A DNA stretch of 64,000 nt from positions 10,931 through 74,930 of the IMG/VR virus record IMGVR_UViG_3300014613_000002; one strand, given 5' to 3'. The translations under genes were made by a program, and so were the position numbers. This document shows, piece after piece, positions 9,743 through 49,925 of this stretch; within the stretch, counting starts at the first letter, position 1; each line of letters begins with the position of its first letter. A model generated the notes under the pieces. It ran no database searches. It saw only the letters and a list, made by a program, of their open reading frames with translations, and was not told the origin of the DNA. The DNA comes from a virus (Duplodnaviria > Caudoviricetes).

Positions 9743-9751
9743 GAGGTAAAA

Positions 9752-10048: not shown

Positions 10049-10173
10049 TCTCTATGAACACAACCCAGAAACTAGATGTTGGTTTTATAATGGTGAAATA
10101 ATTGTAGAATGGGATTCTGTTCTCCTAGTTTATCCTAATTTTTATGGCTATAATAATTTAGAGGAGACAAAAG

Positions 10174-10512: not shown

Positions 10513-11184
10513 TTAGGACTTACTAGGTAAGTCTATCCTAACTAGGCCTTTGTAATCTTGTGCGAAGACAAAGATATGCCGCTTTTGCTGGTATTCGCTC
10601 ATCCTATCGTAAATAGGCATAATCTGCCGATATAATTTGGAAACGCTGCTCCGTTCCAAGTCGGCGAAAAGCAGATTTGCGGGCTTGAGAAGCACTAGGT
10701 CGGAATCGAGAACATATTTGTCGCTTTGCGCCGAGCTTTGTGAGGAGAATATTAATGTCAGTTTCCGCTTGTGCCGAACCATAGGAATCAGCTTTTCCAG
10801 TTGTTGCACTAGTATGTTGTAGTAGTCACGACTTCCCATATACACTGGCAAATCGTCACACAGAAGGGTTGAATATGGTGGAGGCTCAGTATCCAATTGC
10901 TCCAGCTTCAGTTCAGTTACCCAGCTTGGGGGTGTTTGCTCTGGGAAAATGGCATAGGTTGGCTTGCCTATAATTTCAGCCAACCTTAATATAGTGACTG
11001 TTTTCCCAATGCCCCGCCTCCCTATAACTAGAATCACTGAGCCATCCTTATGCCTCAGTTTGATTATCGGCGCAATCTCGCCAAGCTCAGGAATCTGGGG
11101 CTTTTCTTCCTCTCCTTTATCTTTGCCAAACAGATATTGGTAGGCAAGCCCAAGGACAAAGTCTCCGATTGTTGGTTTGGTCAT
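10513..11184 (-). CDS. Genome packaging ATPase, FtsK/HerA superfamily (A32/P9-like)
   Basis: Walker A GRRGIGKT, Walker B LLCDD, arginine finger MVRH, sensor IFSSQ. Confidence 0.85.
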   Translation of the reverse strand: MTKPTIGDFVLGLAYQYLFGKDKGEEEKPQIPELGEIAPIIKLRHKDGSVILVIGRRGIGKTVTILRLAEIIGKPTYAIFPEQTPPSWVTELKLEQLDTEPPPYSTLLCDDLPVYMGSRDYYNILVQQLEKLIPMVRHKRKLTLIFSSQSSAQSDKYVLDSDLVLLKPANLLFADLERSSVSKLYRQIMPIYDRMSEYQQKRHIFVFAQDYKGLVRIDLPSKS

Positions 11185-11825
11185 TTTATCTTTTGAGCGA
11201 TAGTGCTCTCGCTTAATCTTTCTGTTAGTATTCTAACTTGTGTTTTCAGTAGCCTTATTTCCTTTTCTTGCTTCTTTAAGTCTCTCTTCAAATAGCATAT
11301 AGATAAGTGCTCTGCTTGGATTGGGAATAACTCTAGATTTTCTATTCGGTTATCATCTTTAATACCATTCTTGTGGTGAACAACTTCGTGTTTTTCTAAA
11401 CACCTGCCTAAGTGTTGTGCTACTATTAGCCTATGTTCACCTACCCAACCACTCTTGTCTGCTATATTGTAAAATGGGTTGTCTGAATAAATATGAATAT
11501 AAGTATAGTATCCAGGTTTGCTCTTTCTTCCACCTTTCCATCCTGGATGTTTTTCTCCTTTTAGTGGGTACGGATGTTTTTGAAAAGCAAGTTTTGTTGC
11601 CTCACTATGGGTTCGTCGAGGTATTTTAAATCTCCACAACCATGTAAATACTGTTCCCTCAACAACACCTTTAAGTTCACCAATTTCTCTAGCTGATAGT
11701 TGCTTATCCCAGTAAAGGGAATAGAGTTCACTTTTATCAACTTTAGCCTCAACACCTCTTCTAAGTGTAGCTTGCCTAATATTCTCCTTAGCTATAGCTG
11801 ATAACTTGTATCCTTTTGGTGGCAT
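11181..11825 (-). CDS. HNH homing endonuclease with N-terminal HTH
   Basis: EHRLIVAQHLGRCLEKHEVVHHKNGIKDDNRIENL. Confidence 0.9.
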   Translation of the reverse strand: MPPKGYKLSAIAKENIRQATLRRGVEAKVDKSELYSLYWDKQLSAREIGELKGVVEGTVFTWLWRFKIPRRTHSEATKLAFQKHPYPLKGEKHPGWKGGRKSKPGYYTYIHIYSDNPFYNIADKSGWVGEHRLIVAQHLGRCLEKHEVVHHKNGIKDDNRIENLELFPIQAEHLSICYLKRDLKKQEKEIRLLKTQVRILTERLSESTIAQKIK

Positions 11826-12059
11826 TTATTTTCCTTTCCCCTTGAAGATATCAAGGTATGCTTCTGCGGGTACATACTCTACTTTTGGGCCGAATATCGA
11901 GTGGTTAACAATCCACTCCCATCCTGTTAGGCCTCCTCTCATCCCACTCCGAAATATAGGGGTAATGAAGAATGCCACCGTTGCAAATACGGCAATTGTC
12001 TTCCAAGCATTACCCATATATCTCCAGATACGCTTCCCTGCATCTCTCAACTGCCTCAT
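11826..12059 (-). CDS. Small membrane protein, possible packaging pore component
   Basis: One TM segment; adjacent to ATPase. Confidence 0.5.
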   Translation of the reverse strand: MRQLRDAGKRIWRYMGNAWKTIAVFATVAFFITPIFRSGMRGGLTGWEWIVNHSIFGPKVEYVPAEAYLDIFKGKGK

Positions 12060-12207
12060 CTACTGGTAAGTGCAGTTGTGGGTCTGTGGCAAACGAATAC
12101 ATTAACTGCCACAAATTCAAAGGTTCGCCTACATTGGCTTTTCGCCAAATTGGGAAAGAACCTAAGATGAACGCAACAGCCAGGGCTTTCTCACAAGTGA
12201 ATTTCAA
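12010..12207 (-). CDS. Small membrane-associated protein
   Basis: Hydrophobic N-terminus; EAYL(D/E)I shared with neighbour. Confidence 0.45.
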   Translation of the reverse strand: MKFTCEKALAVAFILGSFPIWRKANVGEPLNLWQLMYSFATDPQLHLPVDEAVERCREAYLEIYG

Positions 12208-12208
12208 C

Positions 12209-12340
12209 TTAGCGTCTGCTGCGCTTTCGCCTTCTGGGATTTCTCCTCATCTTAGCAATGTGCTTCATCCAAAGCTTCCTCTTTGCTGACTTCGGGGGGC
12301 CGATTTTCCCATATTTGACTCTTGGTTTCCTTTTAGCCAT
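12209..12340 (-). CDS. Arg/Lys-rich core peptide (43 aa)
   Basis: MAKRKPRVKYGKIGPPKSAKRKLWMKHIAKMRRNPRRRKRSRR; GGAGG RBS. Confidence 0.75.
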   Translation of the reverse strand: MAKRKPRVKYGKIGPPKSAKRKLWMKHIAKMRRNPRRRKRSRR

Positions 12341-12791
12341 GATATACCTCCTTACTAAATAGTTCTTCCTGATACGGACTTAGCTTGCTTAATTCTACCC
12401 ATTTCTCCTTCATCCGATTTCGCTTCAGTTGCCGAAGTTGCTGGTAGCATACTTCCTTATCATGCTTGCACCATTTATTAGAGGGCAAGTCCAAATACCC
12501 TCGTAAAATTACTGCTTCTTGTTTTTTAGTAGTCAGGAAAGGAATTATGCTATCTAGGACATCGCTTATTAGTTGCTTTTTGTATATCCTCCAGCCCCAA
12601 CAATTCTCTCTTATTTGCATACTACCCTTAGCTATATTGCCTTGTAACCAAGACATAAGTAATGGGTCTCCACACACGAAAATGCAGGGTTTGTAATGTA
12701 CATGCGTTGCCTCACCATATTTACTAATATAGAGCGAGCCATCAGCATCAGTTACGCCAGCAAGATAAGCCCATTTAGCATCGTTAGTCAC
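12333..12791 (-). CDS. Single-motif LAGLIDADG homing endonuclease
   Basis: WAYLAGVTDADGSLYI; IIPFLTTKKQEA. Confidence 0.88.
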   Translation of the reverse strand: MTNDAKWAYLAGVTDADGSLYISKYGEATHVHYKPCIFVCGDPLLMSWLQGNIAKGSMQIRENCWGWRIYKKQLISDVLDSIIPFLTTKKQEAVILRGYLDLPSNKWCKHDKEVCYQQLRQLKRNRMKEKWVELSKLSPYQEELFSKEVYHG

Positions 12792-12841
12792 TAAATCTAC
12801 CCTACCTCATAGCCCATTTTAGACATTGTGTTCCTCAGTCT

Positions 12842-12916
12842 TTACCTTCTCCTCGGCATCTTGCAGCGGACTCTCTTACCCTTGACCTTGCGGAAGTAGT
12901 ATTTTCGCTTTGCCAT
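12842..12916 (-). CDS. Arg/Lys-rich peptide (24 aa)
   Basis: MAKRKYYFRKVKGKRVRCKMPRRR; AGGAGGTG RBS. Confidence 0.65.
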   Translation of the reverse strand: MAKRKYYFRKVKGKRVRCKMPRRR

Positions 12917-12950
12917 TTAATTCACCTCCTGAGATACTTTCTATTACCTT

Positions 12951-13064
12951 TTACCTTCTGGGCTTCTTTCGTCTGTAACCACGGACGGTAATCCTCTTGC
13001 CCTTGCGAACATAGGAATAGCCCTTCACGCCCACTGCTCCTCTACTTCGCTTCCTTTTAGCCAT
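12951..13064 (-). CDS. Arg/Lys-rich peptide (37 aa)
   Basis: MAKRKRSRGAVGVKGYSYVRKGKRITVRGYRRKKPRR; AGGAGG RBS. Confidence 0.7.
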   Translation of the reverse strand: MAKRKRSRGAVGVKGYSYVRKGKRITVRGYRRKKPRR

Positions 13065-13074
13065 TTTTAACCTC

Positions 13075-13659
13075 CTATATTTTATTTCCTAACAAGTTAT
13101 TCTTATGAGATTTTCTATTTGGTCTTTTCCGAGTATAAGCAGGTGAACTTATAGTTACACCACTCTGACGAGTGTAAACACAAGCTCTAACTTTAACTGC
13201 TGTTCCTCTCTTATGTCCTTTTCTCTTATGTTGGTGGATTGGTATAACTATTTCAGATTCTTCCTTAGTATATATGGTAGCTAATTTAGATACCTCTTTT
13301 GCTTGTTCTGGTATACTCGATTCTGATATTAAGGATAGTTGTTTATTTGCAGAATACATAATTATTCCAAGTTTTGGCAAGAATGGTAAAAATTTATTTA
13401 GTTCAGGAATATAGCTATCATCAATAACTAAATACGATTTATAACCATTGATTAACCCCTCTAAACATTGCATTAGACCTTGCCGTAGCTCACTATAGCT
13501 AATTAGTTCAGGCTTAATCTCATATACAGACACAATTTCATCATTAAGGAAAGCTAAATCAGGTCTCCAGTGTGAATTAGTTACTCTCACCCTCGTATAA
13601 TTTTGGCTATTGAGCCAACCTACTAGTGTAAGCTCTACCTCAGAATGTGTTAGTGGCAC
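13075..13659 (-). CDS. PD-(D/E)xK nuclease with basic C-terminal hairpin
   Basis: RPDLAF...VYEIKP...GLMQC; tail VKVRACVYTRQSGVTISSPAYTRKR. Confidence 0.7.
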   Translation of the reverse strand: MPLTHSEVELTLVGWLNSQNYTRVRVTNSHWRPDLAFLNDEIVSVYEIKPELISYSELRQGLMQCLEGLINGYKSYLVIDDSYIPELNKFLPFLPKLGIIMYSANKQLSLISESSIPEQAKEVSKLATIYTKEESEIVIPIHQHKRKGHKRGTAVKVRACVYTRQSGVTISSPAYTRKRPNRKSHKNNLLGNKI

Positions 13660-13766
13660 TAACTTCTCCTAGAACGCCGTTTGCGAAGGTAACTTTTAAC
13701 ATGAATTAGCTTACCTTTTCTACGCATAGTATATTCCTTAATCTTAGTTCTCCGTGCTTTAGCCAT
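13659..13766 (-). CDS. Arg/Lys-rich peptide (35 aa)
   Basis: MAKARRTKIKEYTMRRKGKLIHVKSYLRKRRSRRS. Confidence 0.7.
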   Translation of the reverse strand: MAKARRTKIKEYTMRRKGKLIHVKSYLRKRRSRRS

Positions 13767-13800
13767 TAGCTCACTCCTTCTATGTTTACTTTCATATTTA

Positions 13801-13829
13801 ATGATAACATAACCACTGAGCTATGTCAA
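13801..13829 (-). promoter_or_regulatory. sigma70-type promoter for core-peptide/ATPase block
   Basis: TTGACA-17-TATCAT. Confidence 0.65.
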
Positions 13830-13871
13830 ATTATACTATGCTTAAATTTTAGCTCGTCTTATAATCTATAA

Positions 13872-14972
13872 CTACAGCCAACCTCTCCTTTTAGCTTCAA
13901 CAGGACTAACTCCTCTCTTTCTCTTTCCCAAATATAGCTCTCCAGGCAAAAGTGGGTTGCCAGCCTCATTCAGAGGCACACCATTAGAACTCCTGACATA
14001 AGCACTAGGATTAGCTACTACTGGTGCAAAGCCAGAAGGCAGCCTGCGCTCCTTTCTAAAGGCTTCTCTCTGTGCTGGAGTCCAGCGCCACCAAATTCCA
14101 CTGGCGATTCGGGCAAGTCTTGCCTTAGTCGCCTTCGGATAAGAAGCTCTCAGACCTGGCAGCATTTTGGCGAACCATTCACGAGGTGGGCGGGTTTCTT
14201 TCCCTTCTGGGTTAGCCATAGCTCTTGCTGGGACTCCAGCTCTTTTGAGGCTTGCACAAGTTTCGTGATAAACTCTGCCTTTGTAGCGAACCCCACCAGC
14301 GTGAACGGGTTCTCCGCAATATTCGCATGTTCCATATCCACCAGCTCTTTTCCTAGCTGCCCAAGTTCGCCTTGAGACTTCAGGACGAGTTATGCCATCT
14401 AGGTGACCGTATTTAACTGTCCTTGAGCTAGGATTATACTTTACCCAAGCAATAGAACCAGCAGGAATTCTGTGTATAACCTTTAGTTTATATCCTCTAC
14501 TTTCAAGCTCTTTCTTGAGTTCAGAATACTCTTCTGGTTTAGCTGGTTTCCCTTTATAGTAGTAATCCATAGATGCTTCACCATGTTGCCCTATGTGTTG
14601 ATATGCCATTACCATACCCCAGTTTACAGGAACATCTGGTAGAAAGGCAGTAATGATATCATTAACCTTCTTAAAAACTACTCTATCCAATTTTGGATTC
14701 AATGCTCTTGCCCCATAAAACCTGTAAGCATCTCTTGGTTCTCCTCTCATAGCCCGCCTTGGGTTTCTTCCAATATGTCTAGGTTCTAAACCTATGCTAA
14801 AAGCCTCATAGCAACCTTTGTGCCAGGCTTTTCCTTGTGCACTTACTCCCCTAGCCCAAACTGGCTCCTTGCAGAAAAAGCAGATACCTTTATAGGCTCT
14901 CTCTCTTCTCCTTCTTTGCCATACAGCTCTAGATATTTTCGCTCTAGCTTCTCCTCGTAATACTGGATTCAT
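13872..14972 (-). CDS. Basic multi-module protein with 7 Asn-Pro motifs and two LIM-like Zn fingers
   Basis: CFFC..HKGC and CEYC..HETC; NP at module boundaries. Confidence 0.75.
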   Translation of the reverse strand: MNPVLRGEARAKISRAVWQRRRRERAYKGICFFCKEPVWARGVSAQGKAWHKGCYEAFSIGLEPRHIGRNPRRAMRGEPRDAYRFYGARALNPKLDRVVFKKVNDIITAFLPDVPVNWGMVMAYQHIGQHGEASMDYYYKGKPAKPEEYSELKKELESRGYKLKVIHRIPAGSIAWVKYNPSSRTVKYGHLDGITRPEVSRRTWAARKRAGGYGTCEYCGEPVHAGGVRYKGRVYHETCASLKRAGVPARAMANPEGKETRPPREWFAKMLPGLRASYPKATKARLARIASGIWWRWTPAQREAFRKERRLPSGFAPVVANPSAYVRSSNGVPLNEAGNPLLPGELYLGKRKRGVSPVEAKRRGWL

Positions 14973-14987
14973 TTTTCACCTCCTACA

Positions 14988-15191
14988 TTATTTCTTTCTT
15001 AAAACCCAAAGCAACAGCCCAACTCCTCCACCAACACCTAGAACCCACTTCCAGTTAGCTGTTAACCAAGTAGTTATATCGCCAACCTCAAATGGGTTGC
15101 CAATCCCACTAACTGGTAGCCGTTCTCCAGTTTCCCCACACTGGCTACATTGTTGGTATTGTGCTTCGTCTGTGACCTGTCTTACTGACAT
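14988..15191 (-). CDS. Small C-terminally anchored membrane protein
   Basis: CSQC, GNP, TM helix ending RKK. Confidence 0.6.
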   Translation of the reverse strand: MSVRQVTDEAQYQQCSQCGETGERLPVSGIGNPFEVGDITTWLTANWKWVLGVGGGVGLLLWVLRKK

Positions 15192-15202
15192 AATTCACCT
15201 CC

Positions 15203-16240
15203 TTAGAATTCTCTTACATCTCGACTAACAAATGCTTTCCTACATTTAGAACACCAGTAATAGGGCATACCATGCTTGCTGAGATGATGCATTTCCATAA
15301 GCCTACCACAATGCGGACACTTCGCTCTAGGATTCTTGATACTTTTACTCCTTATCCTCTTCTTCCAAAGAACATACCACTTGCCACTAGGAACAGATGG
15401 ATGTGGTTGAAACTCGATAGTTATTCGTGTCTTATAACCTTCGTCTGCAAGCTTCTTGGCGTATCTTTCTGCGTCATCTCTTTGGGTATATTCCCAATGT
15501 TTTCTAAATCGCTCATGATTGAAAATTCTTGTTTTCATCTGATAAAGCGTCTTAGGTTTTGGATTCCTCATATTACCTCCTCTTGGATTCTTTTTGTCAT
15601 AATGCCACTCTATAGATTTCTTGGTAGGGCGACCATTACTATAAAAAAATTTATCTAATTCCTTTTCTGTTCCCACTACTGCTCTTTTACCATCTGCTGA
15701 TATTTCAAAAAATAAACCTTTTTTATCAGCGTATCTATCTGCCTCTTTTACACTATTAAAAAACTTTAATGGATTCTTCACCCCCAGTATCCTCTTGACT
15801 GCCATACCTGAAGCAGCTAGGCCTGCCCCAAAGCCCAAACCTGTCACCATTCCTTCAAGCAAGGGGTTTATCTCTTCATCAGTGTATTTGTTGAGAGCTT
15901 CCGTAGCTTCGATTAAACTGACTTTATCAGCATGACTTTCAATCTCCTTAGTATAAGTTCTTGCACCTTCAATATAACTTTTGTAATGTTCCAGTTCGTG
16001 TCTAACTGTTTGGTAAAATTCGTGAAAAGCTCTTATCTCTGAATATCTCTTTAGCCTTTCAATAAAACTAGGTGAAATGTAAATACAAAGATTCTTAGTA
16101 CTAAACGCTCCACTTGCTCCAGCTATTTCCTTAAACAAAATAGGAATAGGTTTGAATCCATAGCTCCTATAGAAACTATTAGCTATATCATGAGCTACAT
16201 TAATTGAACTCACTCCTGTAGTTAACTGTTGTGCAATCAT
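15203..16240 (-). CDS. Multi-module protein: zincin-like metallopeptidase, hydrophobic segment, Zn ribbon; 5 NP motifs
   Basis: HELEH; CPHC..CSKC. Confidence 0.7.
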   Translation of the reverse strand: MIAQQLTTGVSSINVAHDIANSFYRSYGFKPIPILFKEIAGASGAFSTKNLCIYISPSFIERLKRYSEIRAFHEFYQTVRHELEHYKSYIEGARTYTKEIESHADKVSLIEATEALNKYTDEEINPLLEGMVTGLGFGAGLAASGMAVKRILGVKNPLKFFNSVKEADRYADKKGLFFEISADGKRAVVGTEKELDKFFYSNGRPTKKSIEWHYDKKNPRGGNMRNPKPKTLYQMKTRIFNHERFRKHWEYTQRDDAERYAKKLADEGYKTRITIEFQPHPSVPSGKWYVLWKKRIRSKSIKNPRAKCPHCGRLMEMHHLSKHGMPYYWCSKCRKAFVSRDVREF

Positions 16241-16989
16241 ATCATTAGCCCATACTTTTTATAGAATCTCAGTTTCTTTGGGAATGGCCAATCAAGACCT
16301 GGAGGTCTAGTTTTTTCTAGCTCTCTAATTACAGATTTAGGAAACTTCCGAATTGTTAGCATCTCAGATGGAGCTAAAATTCTAACTCTTGGTTCTGTAA
16401 CTACTGGATTCTTTCTATACCATTTCCTAAACTCTGCTGGGTGAGCACGCTGATAATGCCTCCTGAGCCAAGCCATTCTCTCTGGAAACTTAGGATGCAG
16501 TAATAGGGATTTTGGGACACAACGACCGCAAATTGAGCAACAAAACCTTTCCAGTGGATTAGCAGTAAAATACGCTCCAGCCTGCCCTCTCCAATATTCG
16601 GCAGCTTCAAGGTGGCCAGACTTCAGGTCTCCCCTATACCTTTTTAGCGACTCCAATGCTTCTGGGTGAACTTTAACTGACACTTTAGTTGGATTATAAA
16701 CCTTAGCTATCTTTCCCATTCCTACCGACCTCCCGTAATAGAATGAACTTTTAATCGGGTCATAACTGTACCTCCTAGATATGTCGTATTGAACATTGGC
16801 TAATTTCTTGATTTGGTCTTTTTCAGATTTGGTTAGTGGATTTCCCTTTATAGTTCCCCATTCTATTGCTCTCTTGGCATTTTCCAAGGAACCGTATGTT
16901 GCTATATACTTCCCTGATTTGAATACAAGAAATTTGTCTTCTGATTTTACTATTGTATATCCGTAGTATTTATAAATTTTCTCTTTCAT
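16237..16989 (-). CDS. Basic multi-module protein with 4 NP motifs
   Basis: ~45-55 aa modules; CSIC...HYQRAH finger. Confidence 0.65.
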   Translation of the reverse strand: MKEKIYKYYGYTIVKSEDKFLVFKSGKYIATYGSLENAKRAIEWGTIKGNPLTKSEKDQIKKLANVQYDISRRYSYDPIKSSFYYGRSVGMGKIAKVYNPTKVSVKVHPEALESLKRYRGDLKSGHLEAAEYWRGQAGAYFTANPLERFCCSICGRCVPKSLLLHPKFPERMAWLRRHYQRAHPAEFRKWYRKNPVVTEPRVRILAPSEMLTIRKFPKSVIRELEKTRPPGLDWPFPKKLRFYKKYGLMI

Positions 16990-17007
16990 AGCCCAAACCT
17001 TCTCTTA

Positions 17008-18021
17008 TCAAACTTCTACCGTAATTATTTCAAACGGCATAGGCACATAAGGTTCTAGTTCTCTAATATTAAATTGTCGAATAAGTTCTATAATTTCATC
17101 CTCACTTTTATTCATTAGGTTGTGTTCCCATATAATAAGACAATCATAATCAATAGAATGATAAGCATCTATTTTCCCAGGTTCGCTTGCAGTAAATCTG
17201 CATCCAGTTACTTCAGCACTATGCCAATAATCACCAAAAAACTCTATAACTTTCCTTTTAGATTTATGAGTAAAATCAGGAATAAAAGTTTTGCCATCAA
17301 CCTTTAACTGAATTTTGCCGTTACCAGTATATTCATACTCACTAGGGCAAGCTTCATCAATAATTTTGCCAAGCTGTAATTCGGATTTATTAGGTTTATC
17401 ACGAACTAATCGCAAAAAAGTTCCTATACGCTTCCTTTTATACTCAGGATTTGCCCAAAGTTCCCTTGTCCTTTTATGAGCAGCTTCCACATTTGGTTTC
17501 CAGCCAGAAGCAATCAATTCTAACTTCTTAATTGAGACCTTATTTCGTTCCTCAGGATTACTAAACCTCTGTATCGCTGCAATAGATTGCTTTTTCTTTT
17601 CTTCCTCAGTTCTAACTCTGTAACTATTATGAGCAGTATTCTTTCGCATTGGAATATCAAAATATCTTAAATAGTAAGCAGCCATACAACCTAACTTTTC
17701 ATCAATTGCCCTAGTGCTTAATTTTTGGTTAATATACAGTTCTCTCAATAATTCTTCAGTAATACCTTTTTCTCTTAATTGTCTCATTTTTGTGACATGA
17801 AAACACTCGGGCATAGCTCGTCTAGGCATCTTATTCTCATCCATAAACTTCCAAATATTAGCTCCTGGGAACATAGCACATATTGTATCCACACTCAACT
17901 TATCCTCATAATATAGTTTCGCTATTTTCTCTTTGGTTATACTATAATAACCTAGTTTTTCTTCATATTGTTTTCTAAGTCTTTTAGTATTAGCTTCTCT
18001 GTGTTCTTTTGTCCAACTCAT
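17008..18021 (-). CDS. Vsr/DUF559-like homing endonuclease
   Basis: PNKSE...PDF...VIEFFGDYWH...CLIIWE. Confidence 0.8.
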   Translation of the reverse strand: MSWTKEHREANTKRLRKQYEEKLGYYSITKEKIAKLYYEDKLSVDTICAMFPGANIWKFMDENKMPRRAMPECFHVTKMRQLREKGITEELLRELYINQKLSTRAIDEKLGCMAAYYLRYFDIPMRKNTAHNSYRVRTEEEKKKQSIAAIQRFSNPEERNKVSIKKLELIASGWKPNVEAAHKRTRELWANPEYKRKRIGTFLRLVRDKPNKSELQLGKIIDEACPSEYEYTGNGKIQLKVDGKTFIPDFTHKSKRKVIEFFGDYWHSAEVTGCRFTASEPGKIDAYHSIDYDCLIIWEHNLMNKSEDEIIELIRQFNIRELEPYVPMPFEIITVEV

Positions 18022-18397
18022 TTAACGCTTCCTGTATATATTCCTGTGGCTTGCGAAGTTTCCTTCTACTTATCAAATCTTTATAAATTCTAGGACTCAT
18101 TGTATCCTTATTAGGATAAGTTGAGAATCCTACTTTGTCCATATACTCGTTGTGATTCCACTTAAAAGCATAATGCCCCCCCAATTCATGAGCTAGGCGT
18201 TTATGTCTTTCTTGAGAGCTTTGCTTCATCCACTCTCTCGTAACTGTAATTTTTGGCATTTGTCCGTCTAGAGAAATCCAAATGTCTGGGTATGTTTTCT
18301 TAGAGTCTGAAAATTCTAGCTTCAGCATTCGAACACCAAAATATTTCATTCCTTTTCGCAGGAATTTTCTATCTTCTGGGCTTAGTAATTTTGACAT
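17990..18397 (-). CDS. Putative small zincin-like metallopeptidase
   Basis: LAHELGGH. Confidence 0.45.
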   Translation of the reverse strand: MSKLLSPEDRKFLRKGMKYFGVRMLKLEFSDSKKTYPDIWISLDGQMPKITVTREWMKQSSQERHKRLAHELGGHYAFKWNHNEYMDKVGFSTYPNKDTMSPRIYKDLISRRKLRKPQEYIQEALNELDKRTQRS

Positions 18398-18456
18398 CTC
18401 ACAATCTTTCTGTTATAATACCTATTGCATTTGAAGGCTTCGCCTTCTAAATGCCC

Positions 18457-19482
18457 TCAAACGGGAGAGCCCTCAGCTTGCTGGGGGTTTTCCTCAATAA
18501 AGCAATCATCATTTTTGTTATTAAAATCCTTAATAATTCTGATAAGTTCTTCTTCTGTTTTCTCTTTTAATTCGTGCTCCCATATAACTAGGCAACTGAA
18601 ACCAAATCCAGCATATCTATTAATTTTATCTTGAGGATTTTCTCCTTCGTGGAAATAATCTCCAAACATCTCAATTACCTTTTTCTGACTATTACAGTTG
18701 GTGAAATCAGGATGCAAATTGGCGATTGTTACAGTTCCATCTCCTGTGAATTTATATTGGTTTGGGCAAGCAATATTTATCAAATTCAATAATAAAGATT
18801 CTGGTTTATTCGGATGAGAGCATAGTTTACTAAGAACCTTCTTAGAGTATTCTGGGTTTTGCCAATTCTCTTTCTGATGCTTGGATATTTTTGCTGCTCC
18901 TTTTATGGCATTTTCTTTTCCAGGCTTTGATATTCCTTTATGAGCTATTCCAATCTTTCGAGAGCGTTCTGTATTTGAGCTTACTAGTTTATTTCTTTCC
19001 TCGGTATGATGTTTCCCATAAAATCCGTTTCTTTCCCCTAGCTGTTCTTCCCTATTACTTCTTCTTGGCATATCCCATTCATTCATTTTTTGACTTATAA
19101 TACTTCCAGATGTTTGCAAGACTTTGGCAAATTTGCACATTGGTAAGCCTAACTCCCAATAATAGTGCTGAATATCTTGCGAAGTAAAATCTCTATTCAG
19201 AATGGGTGGTCTACCAAGTGGTTTCTTTTTCTTGTGAGTTATAACTTTACGGGGGATTTCTCTATATTTATTAGTTAAATTGAATGATTCCAATCGAGTT
19301 CTTCTAGGTATATTATATCTTTTCATAAAACTCCAAACTGAGTTATCATTCGTTCCATAAAGAAATCCTATATCAGCTAAAGTTAATTCCTGTATCCAGT
19401 AAAGATTCTCAACCGTAGCTTTATCTAGCTTAACTTCACGCTTGCCTTCAGATATATTATTACACCATTCAGTAGAACGCAT
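18457..19482 (-). CDS. Vsr/DUF559-like homing endonuclease with HTH and NUMOD3
   Basis: PNKPE...PDF...VIEMFGDYFH...CLVIWE; FYGKHHTEE. Confidence 0.8.
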   Translation of the reverse strand: MRSTEWCNNISEGKREVKLDKATVENLYWIQELTLADIGFLYGTNDNSVWSFMKRYNIPRRTRLESFNLTNKYREIPRKVITHKKKKPLGRPPILNRDFTSQDIQHYYWELGLPMCKFAKVLQTSGSIISQKMNEWDMPRRSNREEQLGERNGFYGKHHTEERNKLVSSNTERSRKIGIAHKGISKPGKENAIKGAAKISKHQKENWQNPEYSKKVLSKLCSHPNKPESLLLNLINIACPNQYKFTGDGTVTIANLHPDFTNCNSQKKVIEMFGDYFHEGENPQDKINRYAGFGFSCLVIWEHELKEKTEEELIRIIKDFNNKNDDCFIEENPQQAEGSPV

Positions 19483-19550
19483 TTTCTTGTTATAAGGTCC
19501 TCTTTTTATTTTAATGTTCTGAAGTTTGCTTATATCCTTTCTTGCACATT

Positions 19551-20375
19551 TCAGCCTTCAATGCCCCTTTCAGTGAATTTCGGACTCGACTTGTCCTCAA
19601 TGACGAACAATCCCTTGCCATTCTTCCCTGTAGCGAGTATCGGTTTCTCTGGCAGCATCCTGGAACCAGTGTCCCCGAGCTTGTGAATGAAGGTCGTCCT
19701 TTTGCGCCTGGAGCTGCCATACGGCTGATATTCTATCGCTGTCAATCTACCAATGGATACAAGCTGTTCTCCCTTGTTCGGAACTCTAACCCTGACTTTT
19801 CGCACTTGGGGCGGATTTCCATGAAAAGATTCATAGAGTCCCTTGGGCTTGCCAAAGAGAGTATCAAATATAATAGGGTTTTCTATTGCACCAGTTCTAA
19901 GATTTATCCATCCATTTACTTTGTTACCTATAATAACTCTTACCTGTTCACAAGTTCTTGATTTACGACAGTGAGTTATTGCTGCATTTTTATCCTCAAA
20001 ATCAAGATGGTCATACTTATACTCAAGAAAAGGTTCATCTGGATAGTAGTGATATGCTCGATATTTAATTTTACTTGGATTCATTCTCGCTTTCACTGTT
20101 TCTATATGAGGGCAAGTCCTAACTCCTCCTTTCTTGAATATCCAGGCTGGGCAAGAACATAAGAGGTTTCCTTGCTCATCTGCCTTAACAGTATAGGTTT
20201 TGCTTGGGTCACTCTTGCTCCTGAAAGTAGTTACTGTTCGATAGACCTTCTTTGGGTTAGCAGTCCTAAATCCACTTTTCCATTCCCTAGCAGCTATCCT
20301 CATAGCATCTTGAGGTAAGTAGCCCATACGGACTAATGTCTTGATTCTTTTCTTTATGTAGTCTCGATATGTCAT
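19551..20375 (-). CDS. Basic multi-module protein with SWIM Zn finger; 4 NP motifs
   Basis: LLCSCPAW...TCPHI. Confidence 0.7.
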   Translation of the reverse strand: MTYRDYIKKRIKTLVRMGYLPQDAMRIAAREWKSGFRTANPKKVYRTVTTFRSKSDPSKTYTVKADEQGNLLCSCPAWIFKKGGVRTCPHIETVKARMNPSKIKYRAYHYYPDEPFLEYKYDHLDFEDKNAAITHCRKSRTCEQVRVIIGNKVNGWINLRTGAIENPIIFDTLFGKPKGLYESFHGNPPQVRKVRVRVPNKGEQLVSIGRLTAIEYQPYGSSRRKRTTFIHKLGDTGSRMLPEKPILATGKNGKGLFVIEDKSSPKFTERGIEG

Positions 20376-20984
20376 CTAAATTTTTCCTCTAGTAAGCTTG
20401 CCAGCCTTGGTCTTGGGGATTGCATTTTTCATCCTCATTACTTTTTTATAGAGAGCTACAGTTGCTTGATGTTCAGCCCTACCTGTAGGGTCGGACACCC
20501 AATCACGAGTAATATCAACTGCTGCATCTAGGATATCTATAGCTTCATCCAGTCGTTCTCTTGGGATAAATAATGTATTTCCCTTTATAGTTACCCAATC
20601 ATAACCCACATCAAAGAAACGGAAAGGAATGACTATATCTCTTTGTTTAGCTGATAAATATACTTTTATAACCTCTGGGGTAACAGGACGAATTGGATTC
20701 CTGTAAGCATAGCTCCTAAAGCAACCCTGGCAAACATAAGCTCTCTTGCTGTCAAGCCTAACCTGAACAGCTTCCTCCCATGGAATCCAAGAACCGCAAT
20801 CTATGCAGACTGGGTTCGCAACTTTCTTGATATAAATAGCCACCATTCTCCTAGCTTTTCTCCCAATGTAGGTAAAGGCTCTGACATTAGGTCTGCCGAC
20901 CTGTCTGACCCAGAATGCCAACACTCTATCCTTGGCAGAATAAGGGATAGTTTCAATAAGGGAATATCCTTTTATTTTTAACAT
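20376..20984 (-). CDS. Multi-module protein with Zn finger bracketed by NP motifs
   Basis: ANP-VCIDC...CQGC-..RNP. Confidence 0.65.
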   Translation of the reverse strand: MLKIKGYSLIETIPYSAKDRVLAFWVRQVGRPNVRAFTYIGRKARRMVAIYIKKVANPVCIDCGSWIPWEEAVQVRLDSKRAYVCQGCFRSYAYRNPIRPVTPEVIKVYLSAKQRDIVIPFRFFDVGYDWVTIKGNTLFIPRERLDEAIDILDAAVDITRDWVSDPTGRAEHQATVALYKKVMRMKNAIPKTKAGKLTRGKI

Positions 20985-26573: not shown

Positions 26574-26816
26574 TTACTTTTTTGTCAACTCAATGTAGGT
26601 ATGGACTGTTCCTTCTAGTTTAGCCAGGTTAACACTGACTTCAGATACCTTTCCCACTAGACCGTCTACCTTTTCCACTAGGCCGTCATCAACTTTTCCT
26701 TCTAAGTTTTTAACTTTTTGAGTCAGCCCACCATAGGTATATACCTTGGTGTAAACCCATCCGAAGACATTCAGTAGTGTGACACCACCTAGTGCTATCC
26801 AACTTGTTAAGTCCAT
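26574..26816 (-). CDS. TM plus coiled-coil small protein, possible lysis or membrane protein
   Basis: N-terminal TM and heptad pattern. Confidence 0.55.
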   Translation of the reverse strand: MDLTSWIALGGVTLLNVFGWVYTKVYTYGGLTQKVKNLEGKVDDGLVEKVDGLVGKVSEVSVNLAKLEGTVHTYIELTKK

Positions 26817-27796
26817 TGTATTGCCTCCTTATAGCTTTTATCCAGTCCTAATTTTTGGGTTACATTAGAAAATCTATTGGCTATAGTTGTCGTGTTGCTT
26901 CCTGCAAAAAGCAAGCCCACAACCATGTTATCTTCAGTTAAAATTATTGAACCGCTGTCTCCACCCTCTGAAACAGGCCCCATAACGAATTGGTCAGTAA
27001 ATATCGCAGTTTCGCCATTCATACCAACATTGACGGTAGCATCGACCGCTGTTATTTCACCGTGAGTTAAACCAGTTGTCCGCCCGGATTTCTTAATCTT
27101 CATTCCAACTTCTGGCCCAATTACCTCTTTGGGTAATCCAACTTCTAGAATTGAACTCAGTATATTCTTAGCATTATTGGGTTTGGCTAGGGCGCAGTCA
27201 ACCAAATTGTCATTATCAGCCATAGGAAATAATCTTGTCCTTCTGCCAAATGCCTTAGCGGTAAAGTTAAATATCTTGGCGATAAAGTTAGCGGCTGGGC
27301 AGAAGCTGGACATCCACATATTGATAGGAACAAATTCAGCCAATTTCCCTATTTCGCAGTCGCCCATCTCCGTTGTAATATCATAGGGGCCTGGCTGCAG
27401 AATGGCATCTCCTATCTGCCCTTTGTTGCAGGCAGCGAGCACATGATTATTTGATAAAATATACTTTTCACCATTCTTTTTAACAGTCATGCCCAAGGTT
27501 CCAGCAGTTATATCTTTATGTCCAATGGAAACACCACCTGGAGCTGGCCTCCACTTATCAGTTCTTTCCTTGTCAGCATCCAGCAGCCTTATCTCGCCTA
27601 CCTCAACTATGTCTGTTTCCTTTCCCTTTATCTTCCTTGGGACAATATCCCGTTTCCTTAATAGCTCTAAAGGCAGCTTCTTAACTACACCGATGACTAT
27701 GGCATCTCTGCCAGTGTCTACTCCACTGGTTATCTTTTTCCCTCTACCAACGAGAACCACATTGCTTTTTCTGAGTAGCTTTTTATCCCAATTCAT
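26807..27796 (-). CDS. Trypsin-like (Nal1-type) serine protease
   Basis: LSNNHVL, VDCAL, GDSGS triad motifs. Confidence 0.9.
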   Translation of the reverse strand: MNWDKKLLRKSNVVLVGRGKKITSGVDTGRDAIVIGVVKKLPLELLRKRDIVPRKIKGKETDIVEVGEIRLLDADKERTDKWRPAPGGVSIGHKDITAGTLGMTVKKNGEKYILSNNHVLAACNKGQIGDAILQPGPYDITTEMGDCEIGKLAEFVPINMWMSSFCPAANFIAKIFNFTAKAFGRRTRLFPMADNDNLVDCALAKPNNAKNILSSILEVGLPKEVIGPEVGMKIKKSGRTTGLTHGEITAVDATVNVGMNGETAIFTDQFVMGPVSEGGDSGSIILTEDNMVVGLLFAGSNTTTIANRFSNVTQKLGLDKSYKEAIQWT

Positions 27797-45088: not shown

Positions 45089-45568
45089 TTACACGGCCTT
45101 TGGCCATGTGTCCACTATGTTCTTTGGCTGGGCTGGATAGCTGCCCACACCTGGATGTCCTCTGCCTAGCATTCTTGGCCCAGACCTGCCGATTTCAATA
45201 TCTGTGAAAGCAGCCAAGCCTTGAGACAACGCCCCCGCCATTCCTCCAGCAACAGCCGCCCTAGCTCCACTTACACCTCCGAGTGATTTGGCAGCAAGGC
45301 CAACTAAGCCAGCACTACCAAGAGCTAACAGGAATTTGCCGAACTTCTGTCCCCTAGTTGCAGCATCCTTGATTATCATTCCAGGCAGCATTATCGCCCC
45401 AGCGAATCCGCCAAGGGCAAGACCAGCATCCATCGGGCTAATTCCCTGCCAGAATTCTGCGAGACCTTTTGGCATAGCCAAAGCAGCAGCAGGGTTTCTC
45501 CTACTCCTACTCCTTCGGCGCTTCCTGCGGTAAGGATTCTCCTGCAAAAGTATTTCTGAATAACCCAT
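45089..45568 (-). CDS. Core/membrane protein with Arg-rich N-terminus bracketed by NP motifs
   Basis: ENPYRRKRRRSRSRRNP then three hydrophobic helices. Confidence 0.7.
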   Translation of the reverse strand: MGYSEILLQENPYRRKRRRSRSRRNPAAALAMPKGLAEFWQGISPMDAGLALGGFAGAIMLPGMIIKDAATRGQKFGKFLLALGSAGLVGLAAKSLGGVSGARAAVAGGMAGALSQGLAAFTDIEIGRSGPRMLGRGHPGVGSYPAQPKNIVDTWPKAV

Positions 45569-46379: not shown

Positions 46380-47444
46380 TCATTTCTTATTAAATAATTG
46401 AATTTGCTTTATTAGTTCATCGTCTGTCTTATTTCGCAAATCGTGCTCCCAGATAACTAAACAATCGAAACCTAACGAGTTATAAGCCATTATGCGCCCT
46501 AATTCACTCCTGCGCCAATTATCATTCGCATTATGAAAATAATCACCAAAAGCTTCAATAAGCTTCTTTTTCCCATTGACATTGGCGAAGTCAGGATTCA
46601 ATCCATTTATAATGAGGGAGGCATCTCCGGTATACTTATATTCATTAGGGCAAGCAACTTTAATTAAATGTAGTATCTTTGATTCAAACTTATTGGGCCT
46701 TAATCCTGTAGCTTCCCTCGACTTTTTGGCCATCTTTTCTATGTGCAAGTTTTTCTCTTCGGCAGACAAAGAAGCCCAATATCTTTTTAATGCTTTCTGC
46801 CTTTTAGACTTGTTTAACTTTAGTGCTTTTGATATATTAGCACAATGCTCAACAGAGAGTGGTTTACCTAGATGAGCAATGGACATTTTTGCTTTAGAAG
46901 ACATGCTATATTTTCTCCCTTTTGCCCAAGGTCGAGGTCGTTTGGCAAATTCAGTGAGCTGTTCTCGAAAATATAAATTTTTCCAAAGGTTCTTCATACG
47001 CTTAGATGTAGACTCTTTGCGTTCTGGCAGAGAAGCTGACATCTTAAATATATTAATCATTTTCTGTCTATAATTTTTATCTTGCCATCTATTCTTGGCA
47101 ATACTAGACATTTTATCTTTAGCTTCTTTTGTATGGTGGCTACCTTTACCAAAACTGTTTAAGCGTTGCTTCCTTTTAGCTTCTTCACTATATAGACTAT
47201 TCCTCATTATTTGCTCATAACTTGGATTTTTCCAAAGTTCTTTTAATGAATTAGATATTTTTTGCTTAGTTATATTGCTAACTTTATGGTCTTTCAGACT
47301 ATTGCTAACTTTTCTAGAAATGGATTGTTTATATTTACTATCTGCCCAGCGTTTTCGGGAAGCCTCGCCAATTTTCTGTTTACTTTCCTCGGTATAAGAT
47401 TTCATAACGTAATATCTACAATCTTTGAGTATTCTGTTCTCCAC
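46380..47444 (-). CDS. Vsr/DUF559-like homing endonuclease with multiple NUMOD3 repeats
   Basis: PNKFE...PDF...LIEAFGDYFH...CLVIWE. Confidence 0.82.
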   Translation of the reverse strand: MENRILKDCRYYVMKSYTEESKQKIGEASRKRWADSKYKQSISRKVSNSLKDHKVSNITKQKISNSLKELWKNPSYEQIMRNSLYSEEAKRKQRLNSFGKGSHHTKEAKDKMSSIAKNRWQDKNYRQKMINIFKMSASLPERKESTSKRMKNLWKNLYFREQLTEFAKRPRPWAKGRKYSMSSKAKMSIAHLGKPLSVEHCANISKALKLNKSKRQKALKRYWASLSAEEKNLHIEKMAKKSREATGLRPNKFESKILHLIKVACPNEYKYTGDASLIINGLNPDFANVNGKKKLIEAFGDYFHNANDNWRRSELGRIMAYNSLGFDCLVIWEHDLRNKTDDELIKQIQLFNKK

Positions 47445-47875
47445 CCAATGGGCCTTTCTGAAGTTAAATCAAGAAAAATCCAATCATTTATTTCTGGAGA
47501 AAATACTTGAGCTATGGCATGGTCGTATTCCCCATCAAGATTGCAGTCCAAAATTGAGATTTTGGTTTCATGACCAATTGAACCCAACAAACTTGAAATA
47601 AGCAAAGCTGCTGATTCACAATCCTCGTGCATTTTGCTAGTAGCTTGATACTGCTCTAAGAGCTTCCTCGGGGAAGTAAGTAGCTCCCTTCCGTGCGGGT
47701 CAGCGACATATTCAAAATTGGATTTCGCCCAGTTAAAAATCGAGGCTATCTCATCGCCTTCTTGTCTGGCTGAAATAGCCGCATCTCTTACCTCAGAACA
47801 ACGAATGCCGTCATTGAGCATTCTCCTAAGTTCTGTTTTGATTGTCTCCAAACTTGCTTCGGGAATAATTTTCAT
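47402..47875 (-). CDS. Transglutaminase-like cysteine protease, candidate maturation protease
   Basis: YVADP.G.E...EDCES...DHA...WIFLDLT (Cys-His-Asp). Confidence 0.8.
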   Translation of the reverse strand: MKIIPEASLETIKTELRRMLNDGIRCSEVRDAAISARQEGDEIASIFNWAKSNFEYVADPHGRELLTSPRKLLEQYQATSKMHEDCESAALLISSLLGSIGHETKISILDCNLDGEYDHAIAQVFSPEINDWIFLDLTSERPIGWRTEYSKIVDITL

Positions 47876-49423: not shown

Positions 49424-49707
49424 GAACTCACTGCTGCTCCTGCTATAGCTGCTGGAACATCCCCAATATGTACTGATAGATAGCGTTGGATTAGTCCAGT
49501 TCCTGTTCCAGTCACGAAAGACCGCAAGTTCCTGGCTTGCTTCTCGTTCAGCGACAGCTCGCTGATTATGTTTTCTGGATTTTGGAAGATTTTTACCAGG
49601 TCAGTGCCGCCTCCACCGCTAAGGCGCTTGATTTCTTGCTCTAGTTGGTCAATTCGCTCACTGCTGGATATTACCTCTGGCTCATCATATTCATAATCTT
49701 GTTCCAT
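49390..49707 (-). CDS. Membrane-associated protein
   Basis: C-terminal hydrophobic hairpin. Confidence 0.55.
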   Translation of the reverse strand: MEQDYEYDEPEVISSSERIDQLEQEIKRLSGGGGTDLVKIFQNPENIISELSLNEKQARNLRSFVTGTGTGLIQRYLSVHIGDVPAAIAGAAVSSWIAKKFIKSI

Positions 49708-49925
49708 TATTTATCTCCCGATTCTTTAATTTCTGCTCCCTTTAGACTCTCATCTAATTCCCATTCTCTAGTAAATATTGCTTCATCTTCACCTGCAATA
49801 CCACTTATATCGAAAGTTACTCCAGCTTTTAATAGTTGTGATTCAGCTTCCCAGACATACTTTAGCTGTTCTTTTGATTTTATTGGAATTACTAGTCTAG
49901 CCACTAACGCTCCTATAATACTCAA
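49707..49925 (-). CDS. Hypothetical protein
   Basis: Operon ORF. Confidence 0.5.
   Translation of the reverse strand: MSIIGALVARLVIPIKSKEQLKYVWEAESQLLKAGVTFDISGIAGEDEAIFTREWELDESLKGAEIKESGDK

Follow-up and report, generated by a model that had tools for sequence, protein, structure and literature searches.

Asn-Pro dipeptides at the seams of small modules in basic proteins of an uncultured prokaryotic virus: a possible processing code

Asn-Pro-seamed proteins and small basic peptides of the locus

The window considered here, the whole stretch of 64,000 nucleotides that was analysed, derives from an uncultured 75-kb dsDNA virus with a prokaryotic host. Five of its open reading frames (ORFs), all on the minus strand, encode basic proteins (pI 9.7-10.5) in which short modules are separated by the dipeptide Asn-Pro (NP). 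Their genes lie at the end of a late minus-strand block, probably the distal end of the structural genes, and adjoin the gene for a 223-aa P-loop ATPase.

The protein encoded at 13872..14972 (366 aa, 7 NP) carries a LIM-like Zn finger module twice, along with short basic modules and a helical one, and ends in a conserved 27-aa module; its NP codon pairs are at 14964, 14760, 14694, 14430, 14208, 14007 and 13953 (low coordinates). Two of its modules are internal duplicates, both terminated by NP. The ORF at 15203..16240 (345 aa, 5 NP; codon pairs at 15863, 15770, 15584, 15560 and 15329) reads as a zincin, NP, a Gly-zipper hydrophobic helix, NP, a 62-aa module, NP-RGGNMR-NP, a 75-aa module that also exists as stand-alone proteins, NP and a Zn ribbon. 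Its start codon overlaps the stop codon of 16237..16989 (ATGA), which encodes 250 aa with 4 NP (codon pairs at 16837, 16690, 16555 and 16405), including a Cys/His module and the highly mobile module VHPEALESLKRYxxDLKAGHxxAAEYWRGQAGAYFTA-NP. At 19551..20375 (274 aa, 4 NP), a SWIM-pattern module (CxCxnCxH) is accompanied by a C-terminal '...RGIxG' module, which is a stand-alone ORF in the relative L008. Directly abutting it (TAG then ATG) is 20376..20984 (202 aa, 2 NP), with an N-terminal module, NP, a Zn ribbon, NP and a 106-aa module. Of the module labels given in an earlier sequence-only reading, the zincin is borne out by its fold, while LIM-like refers to sub-threshold Pfam matches and SWIM to a match to the CxCxnCxH pattern alone.

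Several smaller minus-strand ORFs share the theme. A 43-aa protamine-like peptide (12209..12340) consists of a conserved portion, an NP and an Arg-rich tail, and its homologs in L002 and L008 stop exactly at the point where NP starts here. In the same block of conserved small basic peptides lies a very basic one of 37 aa and pI 12 (12951..13064), similar to peptides in L002, L006 and L008; a further one, of 35 aa and also pI 12, is found at 13659..13766, and both are devoid of NP. The 67-aa protein at 14988..15191 has a C-terminal membrane helix and one unconserved NP, replaced by 'SS' in the L002 homolog. In the Gly-rich hydrophobic protein at 45089..45568 (minus strand), NP brackets an N-terminal Arg tract, QE-NP-YRRKRRRSRSRR-NP, a layout shared with L004:2188-2901 and with L010:10748-12601 from an unrelated 245-kb virus. 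The sequence-only reading had also reported NP in ORF 14988, in the 12209 peptide and on both sides of the ORF 45089 Arg tract, and all of these are present.

Enrichment, conservation and module swapping at Asn-Pro

The same reading had set 22 NP in the 1437 aa of the five basic ORFs against about 3 expected. Its counts prove exact: the Asn and Pro content of the five ORFs predicts 2.77 (Poisson 3.4e-13), so that NP occurs 8-fold over expectation. The rest of the genome itself has a 1.66-fold NP excess, and against the correspondingly scaled expectation of 4.6 the probability is still 4e-9. Part of this genome-wide excess is due to W-x-NP-E/S-Y motifs in paralogs of a NUMOD3-type homing endonuclease. 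NP is the sole outlier dipeptide, with DP, SP, TP and NG at the expected level, and 41% of all Asn residues stand directly before Pro. The flanks are nearly uninformative (Lys 2.4-fold at -1, Leu 2.6-fold at +1), and 108 non-redundant junction contexts have NP alone in common. Both wobble positions of the NP codons vary (AAT/AAC; CCA/CCT/CCC/CCG), which places selection at the protein level and excludes a DNA motif.

A count of NP in homologs, proposed together with the original observation, gives 279 against 37.3 expected (7.5-fold) in 71 proteins from other metagenomes. About 20 of the 22 NPs of the window are conserved seams, so at the level of sequence the earlier proposal, a cleavage or packaging signal, survives the test it had set itself, that NP be conserved at module junctions in homologs, and it is partly supported. 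Its statement that NPs fall mostly between modules thus holds for these sites and not for NP187 of ORF 19551 (FHGNP), which is unconserved, lies inside a module and forms no seam. The pattern is kept in relatives at 23-30% identity and in a genome of 63% GC, and the complete, unrelated 245-kb virus also encodes NP-seamed proteins. Tandem NPNP occurs, and a single protein may have up to 9 NPs. Asn is replaced at two seams, by Asp in L002 ('RDPRAKCP') and by Ser in P0002 ('AGSPLTTK'). No publication on the NP seam pattern was found in the literature.

The homologs differ by whole modules, which were added, dropped or rearranged precisely at NP. Internal HSP ends fall within -5..+3 of NP in 69% of cases, versus 10% at random positions, and 102 of 296 lie exactly on the Pro. 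In homologs of ORF 13872 (P0001-P0005, L006:2393-3007), entire modules are present or absent exactly between NPs, with N254/P255 and N339/P340 invariant. The homologs of ORFs 16237 and 19551 have only single modules in common with them (16-42% coverage, mostly 55-87% identity). When the sequences are cut at NP, 18 recurrent module families result, which appear in varied order and are shared across ORFs.

The same modules are also found as stand-alone ORFs with NP at neither end (P0010, P0012, P0013 and P0022, and in L008 9167-9463, 7376-7573 and 13117-13278). Within the window, the 72-aa ORF without NP at 49707..49925 (minus strand) is homologous to NP-flanked internal modules of P0032, P0053 and L002:2810-3556, matching 98% of the NP-to-NP segment at E 6.5e-21. 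Conversely, in P0031 an NP connects the first two modules of ORF 20376 with the final one of ORF 19551; in the window, stop and start codons stand in for NP as the separator. NP is not confined to internal junctions: in 18 of 77 proteins only a Met and 0-7 further residues precede an NP, which in some of them stands immediately ahead of a Zn ribbon, and 26 of 302 NPs stand ahead of a CxxC knuckle.

An artefact of composition, codon usage or DNA motif, or of a few recent duplications, would find some footing in the NP-terminated duplicates of ORF 13872 and in the genome-wide excess. The significance over that same background, the codon wobble, the single outlier dipeptide, the unrelated junction contexts and the persistence of the pattern in distant and GC-rich relatives refute this explanation, to which we assign practically no weight.

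A minimal zincin and candidate processing enzymes

The N-terminal module of ORF 15203-16240 (aa 1-124, followed by Asn125-Pro126; 15863..16240, minus strand) was modelled by AF2 with pLDDT >90 across residues 1-124, and its fold ends at NP. The predicted fold confirms a minimal, intact-looking zincin metallopeptidase. It matches SPRTN 6mdx (Z 8.6), the minigluzincins jannalysin and selecase (Z about 8) and Wss1, a set whose Z values of 7.6-8.6 over about 100 aligned residues rank as middling in the calibration of the tool; the ArdC metallopeptidase domain matches at Z 5.7. Profile searches gave no Pfam or PDB match. Across 16 homologs the invariant columns are F46, H81, E82, L83, H85, Y86, N125 and P126, so the HELxHY active site is no more invariant than the C-terminal NP. 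As candidates for a third metal ligand (Glu or His) downstream of HExxH, the alignment has a conserved acidic position ahead of a near-invariant A104, and a near-invariant E122. The module comes first in 16 of 16 proteins, and four homologs carry an NP inside the folded domain. Together with the Zn ribbon at 304-341, the zincin is one of two confidently folded domains in which the predicted boundaries could be compared with NP, as the sequence-only reading had suggested; both are NP-bounded and uninterrupted.

A second zincin-like protein of 135 aa is encoded on its own at 17990..18397 (minus strand). Its motif is HELGGH in the window and HExxH...GH in relatives. A Pfam search assigned it no family, and its homologs adjoin NP proteins in three relatives (L002, L004 and L008). 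The HELxHY zincin of ORF 15203, the invariance of its C-terminal NP and this syntenic stand-alone zincin are new here. A trypsin-like serine protease at 26807..27796 (minus strand) offers an alternative, with a match to phrog_20754 'protease' at 4.9e-60, Pfam Trypsin/Nal1_C matches under the cut-off and a homolog in L008 (1799-2788). The protease nominated earlier, at 47402..47875 (minus strand), finds no specific support, having a sub-threshold match to the papain-fold Transglut_core (E 0.0029, 18.3 bits versus a cut-off of 23). Judged from sequence, the other three appear to be better candidates. None of the four has a detectable homolog in the complete 245-kb virus.

Possible roles of the seam and comparison with known systems

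On comparative evidence we favour, at about even confidence, the reading that these proteins are polyproteins and that NP shows where a protease is to cut them. On this reading the five ORFs are polyprotein-style chains of small autonomous units, each 25-80 aa long: a minimal zincin, a hydrophobic Gly-zipper helix, Zn-binding fingers and ribbons, membrane anchors, Arg-rich oligopeptides and basic modules of alpha/beta type. Asn-Pro is then a selected seam signal wherever two of them were fused. Cutting at NP would turn a fused ORF into the free mini-proteins for which relatives have separate genes, and these might serve as virion-core or injected proteins. The best candidate enzyme is the zincin of ORF 15203-16240, which would behave as a leader protease and first cut the invariant NP at its own C-terminus; the stand-alone zincin of ORF 17990, which is co-conserved, would be the next. 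In favour of processing are the NP enrichment, the similarity breakpoints on NP, the module families that recombine across ORFs, the NP-less stand-alone equivalents, the short leaders ending in NP even where no helix would call for a cap, the recurrent NP-bracketed Arg-rich oligopeptides and the confidently modelled N-terminal zincin that stops at an invariant NP. The poor information in the NP flanks resembles short viral cleavage codes. Counting against cleavage, peptidases seldom cut before Pro, and the Asp and Ser at the two Asn-replaced seams are N-cap-type substitutions, as a structural role predicts. The zincin homologs with in-domain NP imply that some NPs are uncuttable.

The main rival, a possible reading that we consider less probable, takes NP as a structural insulator that is not cut, an Asx-Pro turn at which one secondary structure ends and the following one is capped, leaving full-length proteins as beads on a string. 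By insulating folding it would let mini-domains fuse in any order, and a conserved Asx-Pro turn could equally occupy domain boundaries. In two AF2 models, mostly of low confidence around the NPs, a predicted helix has NP directly at its N-cap in 4 of 12 cases; the model of ORF 13872 was too poor for placing its NPs. The rare Asp-Pro and Ser-Pro replacements, the in-domain NPs tolerated in zincins and an NP-seamed virus in which no homolog of the candidate proteases is detectable all point the same way. However, ordinary inter-domain linkers do not keep one and the same dipeptide strictly invariant over hundreds of junctions that are unrelated, and DP, SP and TP cap equally well, yet remain at expectation. 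Moreover, NP is kept after N-terminal leaders of 1-7 residues and before Zn ribbons, where nothing calls for insulation or a cap, it brackets very short Arg-rich peptides, and it occurs in tandem. With modules that exist alone without NP, and stop/start codons interchangeable with it, the linkage itself looks dispensable.

Could NP instead cleave itself, the Asn side chain attacking to form a succinimide as in asparagine peptide lyases? In unstructured peptides, Asn-Pro bonds need weeks to months to break spontaneously, and known lyases need a dedicated fold at the scissile Asn, whereas the junctions here number in the hundreds and are unrelated and probably flexible. The in-domain NPs of the zincins would be self-destructive, and the analogy with FlhB/YscU drawn by the sequence-only reading fails at the motif level, their NPTH being seen at 1 of 302 sites. 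Although the strict requirement for Asn and Pro with free flanks, the shared seams in a virus with no protease in common, and the stable N-terminal Pro that every module (M-NP leaders included) would keep are in its favour, we regard self-cleavage as unlikely. Precedent exists in FlhB/YscU, which self-cleave at Asn|Pro, and in several viral coat proteins with Asn-dependent self-cleavage (PMC3207474). Slightly more doubtful still is an uncut docking or sorting tag, in which NP, often beside Arg/Lys runs, would be recognised by DNA-bound partners or by the machinery for packaging or ejection. The Lys at -1, the bracketed Arg tracts and the tag-like leader-NP layout would suit it, but a tag is unexpected at every internal junction of one protein and absent from stand-alone versions of the same modules, and no candidate reader protein emerged.

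Processing at NP would have counterparts in several known systems. Virion core proteins mature by adenain at (M/I/L)XGX-G in adenovirus and at GG-X/AG-X in ASFV and poxviruses. Basic DNA-associated proteins (here putative precursors), short Arg-rich peptides, a code of 2-3 residues and late-block genes are common to both, but the motif differs and the host here is prokaryotic. An adenain/Ulp1-like route is rejected, as the site is NP and no such cysteine protease was matched by Pfam or PHROG in the ORFs scanned. With the asparagine peptide lyases (FlhB/YscU, family N6; reovirus mu1, family N7), the same scissile dipeptide would apply. Reovirus mu1 cleaves at Asn42 and FlhB/YscU at Asn|Pro-Thr-His. 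The viral lyases release small membrane-active peptides, comparable to the NP-flanked Gly-zipper module; in contrast, the sites here share no surrounding fold and are many per protein rather than one. The NPTH count, the uninformative flanks and the absence of such a fold among the matches set the proteins apart from family N6. Ribosome skipping of the 2A/StopGo type (D(V/I)ExNPG|P) likewise finds no match, with NPGP at 0 and NPG at 10 of 302 sites.

The zincin itself, with HExxH on a helix in a fold of three strands plus helices, falls by its predicted fold within the zincin superfamily and shares the minimal fold of the minigluzincins and SprT/Wss1/SPRTN (PDB 4jix, 4qhf, 6mdx, 5xbn), but has the motif HELxHY and no family membership at the sequence level. 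Its position recalls the viral N-terminal leader autoproteases, such as pestivirus Npro and FMDV Lpro, in that the protease is always the first module with an invariant site at its own C-terminal boundary; the catalytic class differs, and the virus here is a prokaryotic dsDNA virus. The closest architectural likeness may be to the polyvalent proteins of phages and conjugative elements, which have variable domain architectures and a zincin-like MPTase hub, sorted into 12 clades and predicted to process the polypeptide, and among which HEXXXH zincin variants, as in ORF 17990, are described (Iyer et al. 2017, PMC5512222). Unrelated domains are likewise combined here in one polypeptide, with 18 families recombining in different orders. 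However, the modules are tiny and mostly Zn-binding or basic instead of large enzymes, and the proteins have 200-520 aa, unlike the giants there. The available part of the description defines no junction or cleavage motif (PMC5512222), and what is new here is the strict NP seam.

Asn-Pro enrichment in the five basic proteins and their relatives

The five basic ORFs lie on the minus strand at 13872-14972, 15203-16240, 16237-16989, 19551-20375 and 20376-20984 (cited here by their low coordinates), and the pI of their products is 9.7-10.5. The sequence-only reading had pointed to an excess of the dipeptide Asn-Pro (NP) in these proteins, and the excess is real: their 1437 aa hold 22 NPs (7, 5, 4, 4 and 2, in ORF order), where the proteins' own composition predicts 2.77 (P 3.4e-13). 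Elsewhere in the genome the excess is mild (1.66-fold), part of it coming from the W-x-NP-(E/S)-Y motifs of four NUMOD3-type endonuclease paralogs, and against that background the five ORFs still stand out (P 4e-9). The dipeptide is encoded by AAT or AAC followed by CCA, CCT, CCC or CCG. Since the wobble positions vary, the constraint acts on the protein and not on a DNA word, and a DNA-level motif as the source of NP is ruled out.

Searches with ORFs 13872, 15203, 16237 and 19551 gave a set of 66 proteins (P0001-P0066), which includes two from the window itself, and five contigs were fetched with their gene context (L002, L004, L006, L008 and L010). The enrichment carries over to relatives, where counting it had been proposed, with 279 NPs versus 37.3 expected over the 17,737 aa of 71 proteins from outside the window. 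Among the 400 dipeptides of an initial pool of 35 proteins, NP is the sole outlier (119 versus 16.7), while DP, SP, TP and NG are at expectation and 41% of Asn residues precede Pro. On the syntenic contigs the excess is limited to the homologous genes and is absent from their neighbors.

Across 108 non-redundant contexts of seams (NP joints between two mini-domain modules), NP alone is held in common, with weak flank preferences for Lys at -1 (2.4-fold) and Leu at +1 (2.6-fold). NP also sets off very short peptides. Met, 0-7 residues and NP open 18 of 77 proteins, NP and a tail of at most 12 residues close five, and 26 inter-NP spacers measure 14 aa or less, several of them basic (RGGNMR, KRR, VRRTERR); tandem NPNP is present as well. 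Arg tracts bracketed by NP are found in ORF 45089, in L004:2188-2901 and in L010, and the peptide at 12209 consists of a conserved peptide, NP and an Arg tail that is absent in relatives. Protamine-like peptides of 35-37 aa are encoded at 12951-13064 and 13659-13766 (minus strand), with the motif (V/I)(K/R)(G/S)Y..R(K/R)GK...V(K/R)(G/S)Y.RK(K/R), which is kept in L002, L006 and L008 and recurs at the C-terminus of the 194-aa ORF 13075-13659; they are possibly DNA-condensing core peptides. A Cys-rich 108-aa ORF at 48309-48635 (minus strand) combines two NPs with repeated CxxCxGxG-like knuckles, a DnaJ-type zinc-finger pattern.

Exchange of modules at the seams

That NP marks module junctions, as the sequence-only reading had it, agrees with the alignments inspected, in which about 20 of the 22 window NPs are conserved seams; N187 of ORF 19551 (FHGNP) is an exception, being variable and within a module. 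Aligned to ORF 13872, its homologs have or lack entire blocks of 57-94 residues, each running exactly from NP to NP. The homolog P0005 runs beyond the usual C-terminus (...RRGWL) with NP and the Zn-ribbon module that closes ORF 15203 in the window. For ORFs 16237 and 19551, most homologs have one module in common with the query (16-42% of its length, 55-87% identical), the rest of the chain being unrelated. In an all-against-all BLASTP comparison, whose HSPs are interdependent with the zincin family contributing many, 69% of the 296 internal HSP ends fall within -5 to +3 of an NP, versus 10% for random positions; 102 of the 296 stop exactly on the Pro, and 30 of 128 internal starts fall exactly on the Asn. 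Cut in silico at NP, the proteins yield segments of mostly 25-80 aa, which form 18 recurrent families in varying order and varying ORFs. Modeled domain boundaries also coincide with NP, as had been supposed. In ORF 15203, AF2 predicts residues 1-124 with pLDDT >90 and this zincin module ends at N125-P126, while the C-terminal Zn ribbon (pLDDT ~83) begins directly after NP303. The AF2 model of ORF 13872, with a mean pLDDT of 53, is unusable for placing NPs.

Modules fused in one virus are found free in another. The 75-aa module at residues 228-302 of ORF 15203 is a stand-alone protein of 66-83 aa in P0010, P0012, P0013 and P0022, and the window's 72-aa ORF 49707-49925 matches a module of P0032 that is internal and has NP on both sides (E 6.5e-21). 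Several modules have a small gene of their own in the syntenic relative L008 (9167-9463, 7376-7573 and 13117-13278). No NP stands at either end of any of these free forms. Compared with P0031, the window has extra sequence between two NPs, with a stop and a start codon in it, so an ORF boundary can replace an NP seam, and the five ORFs are themselves tightly coupled, with an ATGA overlap and with TAG followed directly by ATG. Judged by these comparisons, fused and free forms are interchangeable.

Candidate proteases and their genome setting

The zincin module (HELxHY) is N-terminal in all 16 homologs, at identities down to 23%. Its fold matches SPRTN (Z 8.6) and jannalysin and selecase (Z of about 8), values that are middling on the tool's calibration, and also Wss1, IrrE and the metallopeptidase domain of ArdC. 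The columns invariant in the 16 homologs are F46, H81, E82, L83, H85, Y86, N125 and P126, meaning that the seam following the protease is conserved as strongly as the catalytic motif. A zincin with an invariant NP at its own C-terminus would have the layout of a leader protease cutting there. Complex prediction for residues 1-124 with an NP-bearing segment of ORF 13872 gave 'no answer' (score 0.00), which is neutral on binding. A second zincin-like protein, unrelated to the first (17990-18397, minus strand, HELGGH), is syntenic in L002, L004 and L008, where it reads HExxH...GH, and hhalign found likeness among three zincin types at the HExxH level only. A trypsin-like protease (26807-27796, minus strand; phrog_20754 at 5e-60) is common to the window and L008. 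The ORF at 47402-47875, previously put forward as the processing protease, has no specific support for that role, its one match being transglutaminase-like and sub-threshold.

Wider searches returned little. No significant match came from a PDB profile search seeded with the zincin alignment, Pfam and PHROGs gave nothing beyond sub-threshold Zn-finger matches for the five ORFs, and GenBank phages held no tblastn match to the zincin protein or to the ATPase described below. IMG/VR pattern scans with ORF 13872, ORF 15203 and alignment A3 found no relatives, nor did GTDB representative genomes hold a relative of ORF 16237.

The source IMG/VR record is complete (74,930 bp, direct terminal repeats), and the window is its bases 10931-74930. 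The NP-protein genes occupy the distal end of a minus-strand block of ~40 kb that also encodes beta-helix and tail-fiber-like proteins, many small membrane proteins and the trypsin-like protease. The last gene of this late block (10513-11184, minus strand), like L006:5194-5865 at the same place in a relative, encodes a P-loop ATPase of 223 aa, which in size and position is like the packaging ATPases of membrane-containing tailless viruses, its Pfam matches being weak and AAA-type. HK97-type capsid protein, portal and terminase had no match among the window ORFs scanned, and the putative capsid protein (44511-45053) matched only uncharacterized viral clusters in the ESM Atlas. Homing-endonuclease-like genes at 17008-18021 and 18457-19482 break up the NP-protein block; together with 46380-47444 and 48632-49423 they are the four minus-strand paralogs with NUMOD3-type W-x-NP-E/S-Y repeats, and they share a C-terminal 'FGDYWH...CLVIWEHEL' nuclease (weak DUF559 match). 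L008 has one such gene (12168-13154). By eye, two further endonuclease-like ORFs adjoin the block at 11181-11825 and 12333-12791 (minus strand), one HNH-type-looking and one with 'LAGVTDADGS' (LAGLIDADG-like). A 149-aa ORF on the plus strand (56988-57437) contains EGCLS and QHEIDH, as peptide deformylases typically do, and is a candidate virus-encoded deformylase. L008 also encodes membrane-anchored proteins with classical C2H2 zinc fingers ('YICPYCNxxFxxxxELxxHIxxxH') at 5017-6006, 7604-8212 and 8209-8769.

The seam format extends to an otherwise unrelated, jumbo-sized virus. L010 (IMGVR_UViG_3300017971_000001; complete, 245,276 bp, DTR, 63% GC) was the sole IMG/VR record matched by alignment A5, and BLASTP against its 364 ORFs matches only 2 of the 145 ORFs of the window genome. 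It encodes two adjacent NP-seamed proteins, with 8 and 9 NPs versus 0.85 and 1.5 expected. At locus 9452-12601 an 'AAEYWRGQAGA' module lies inside one of them, and the adjoining one is Arg/Lys-rich with a Gly-rich hydrophobic domain. None of the window's four candidate proteases was detected in L010, and the format is thus wider than any one recognizable viral protease. This weakens the case for one conserved viral protease; divergent enzymes, an enzyme of the host, self-cleavage and uncut seams are all still compatible with it.

Cut or uncut seams and known systems

Cutting of the seams by a viral or host peptidase is the leading reading and, on the sequences compared, about as likely as not. 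NP occurs solely at fusions of modules. It persists behind trivial N-terminal leaders and ahead of Zn knuckles, flanks Arg-rich oligopeptides on both sides, and can give way to a stop/start pair. Each of these is expected of a processing site, and the four are not easily explained by a simple linker or a helix cap. Against cutting, seams that lack Asn carry Asp-Pro or Ser-Pro, as an Asx/Ser-Pro turn would allow, and four zincin homologs have an NP within the fold, where Ser-Pro is the usual pair. These two observations favor an uncut structural insulator; however, other capping dipeptides are not enriched, and we consider this reading rather unlikely. If it were true, NP would be a natural universal domain insulator for plug-and-play fusion of mini-proteins. 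Self-cleavage would likewise cut the seams and is improbable, with NPTH at 1 of the 302 pooled NP sites, a scarcity that rules out an FlhB-like NPTH site. Skipping of the 2A kind is ruled out by the absence of NPGP. That NP is an uncut docking tag seems more improbable still.

Pro at P1' is accepted by few peptidases. Were proteolytic cutting to fall between Asn and Pro, every product would have a stable N-terminal Pro, including those after M-NP leaders. Our tentative proposal is that several lineages of uncultured prokaryotic viruses may use NP as a general 'cut-here' code, one that would permit the free fusion, splitting and swapping of small effector or core modules. It would be read either by the leader module of ORF 15203-16240, as a minimal zincin of a new, NP-specific class, or through a self-cleavage chemistry. 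If the embedded 124-aa zincin is the enzyme, it would be a sequence-specific protease of very small size and thereby of practical interest. A two-residue seam conserved at hundreds of unrelated junctions in several virus lineages would be a directly testable processing code, and with it thousands of viral proteins now called 'hypothetical' could be parsed by rule into functional mini-domains.

Cleavage of polyproteins at a short, defined motif is characteristic of eukaryotic viruses. For the 'polyvalent' proteins of phages, processing has been proposed, but we know of no defined site. If the 'cut-here' proposal is true, prokaryotic dsDNA viruses would have true polyproteins with a defined site, like eukaryotic RNA and adenovirus-like viruses. 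Literature searches yielded no relevant account of cleavage, or of Asn-Pro seams, in phage polyproteins. FlhB/YscU are known to cleave themselves at Asn|Pro, and Asn-dependent self-cleavage has been established for viral coat proteins as well (PMC3207474). The nearest concept in the literature is that of the polyvalent proteins of phages and plasmids, for which the available text describes a zincin hub, proposed autoprocessing and HEXXXH variants (PMC5512222). That text defines no cleavage site (PMC5512222), whereas the NP-seamed proteins have a strict NP.
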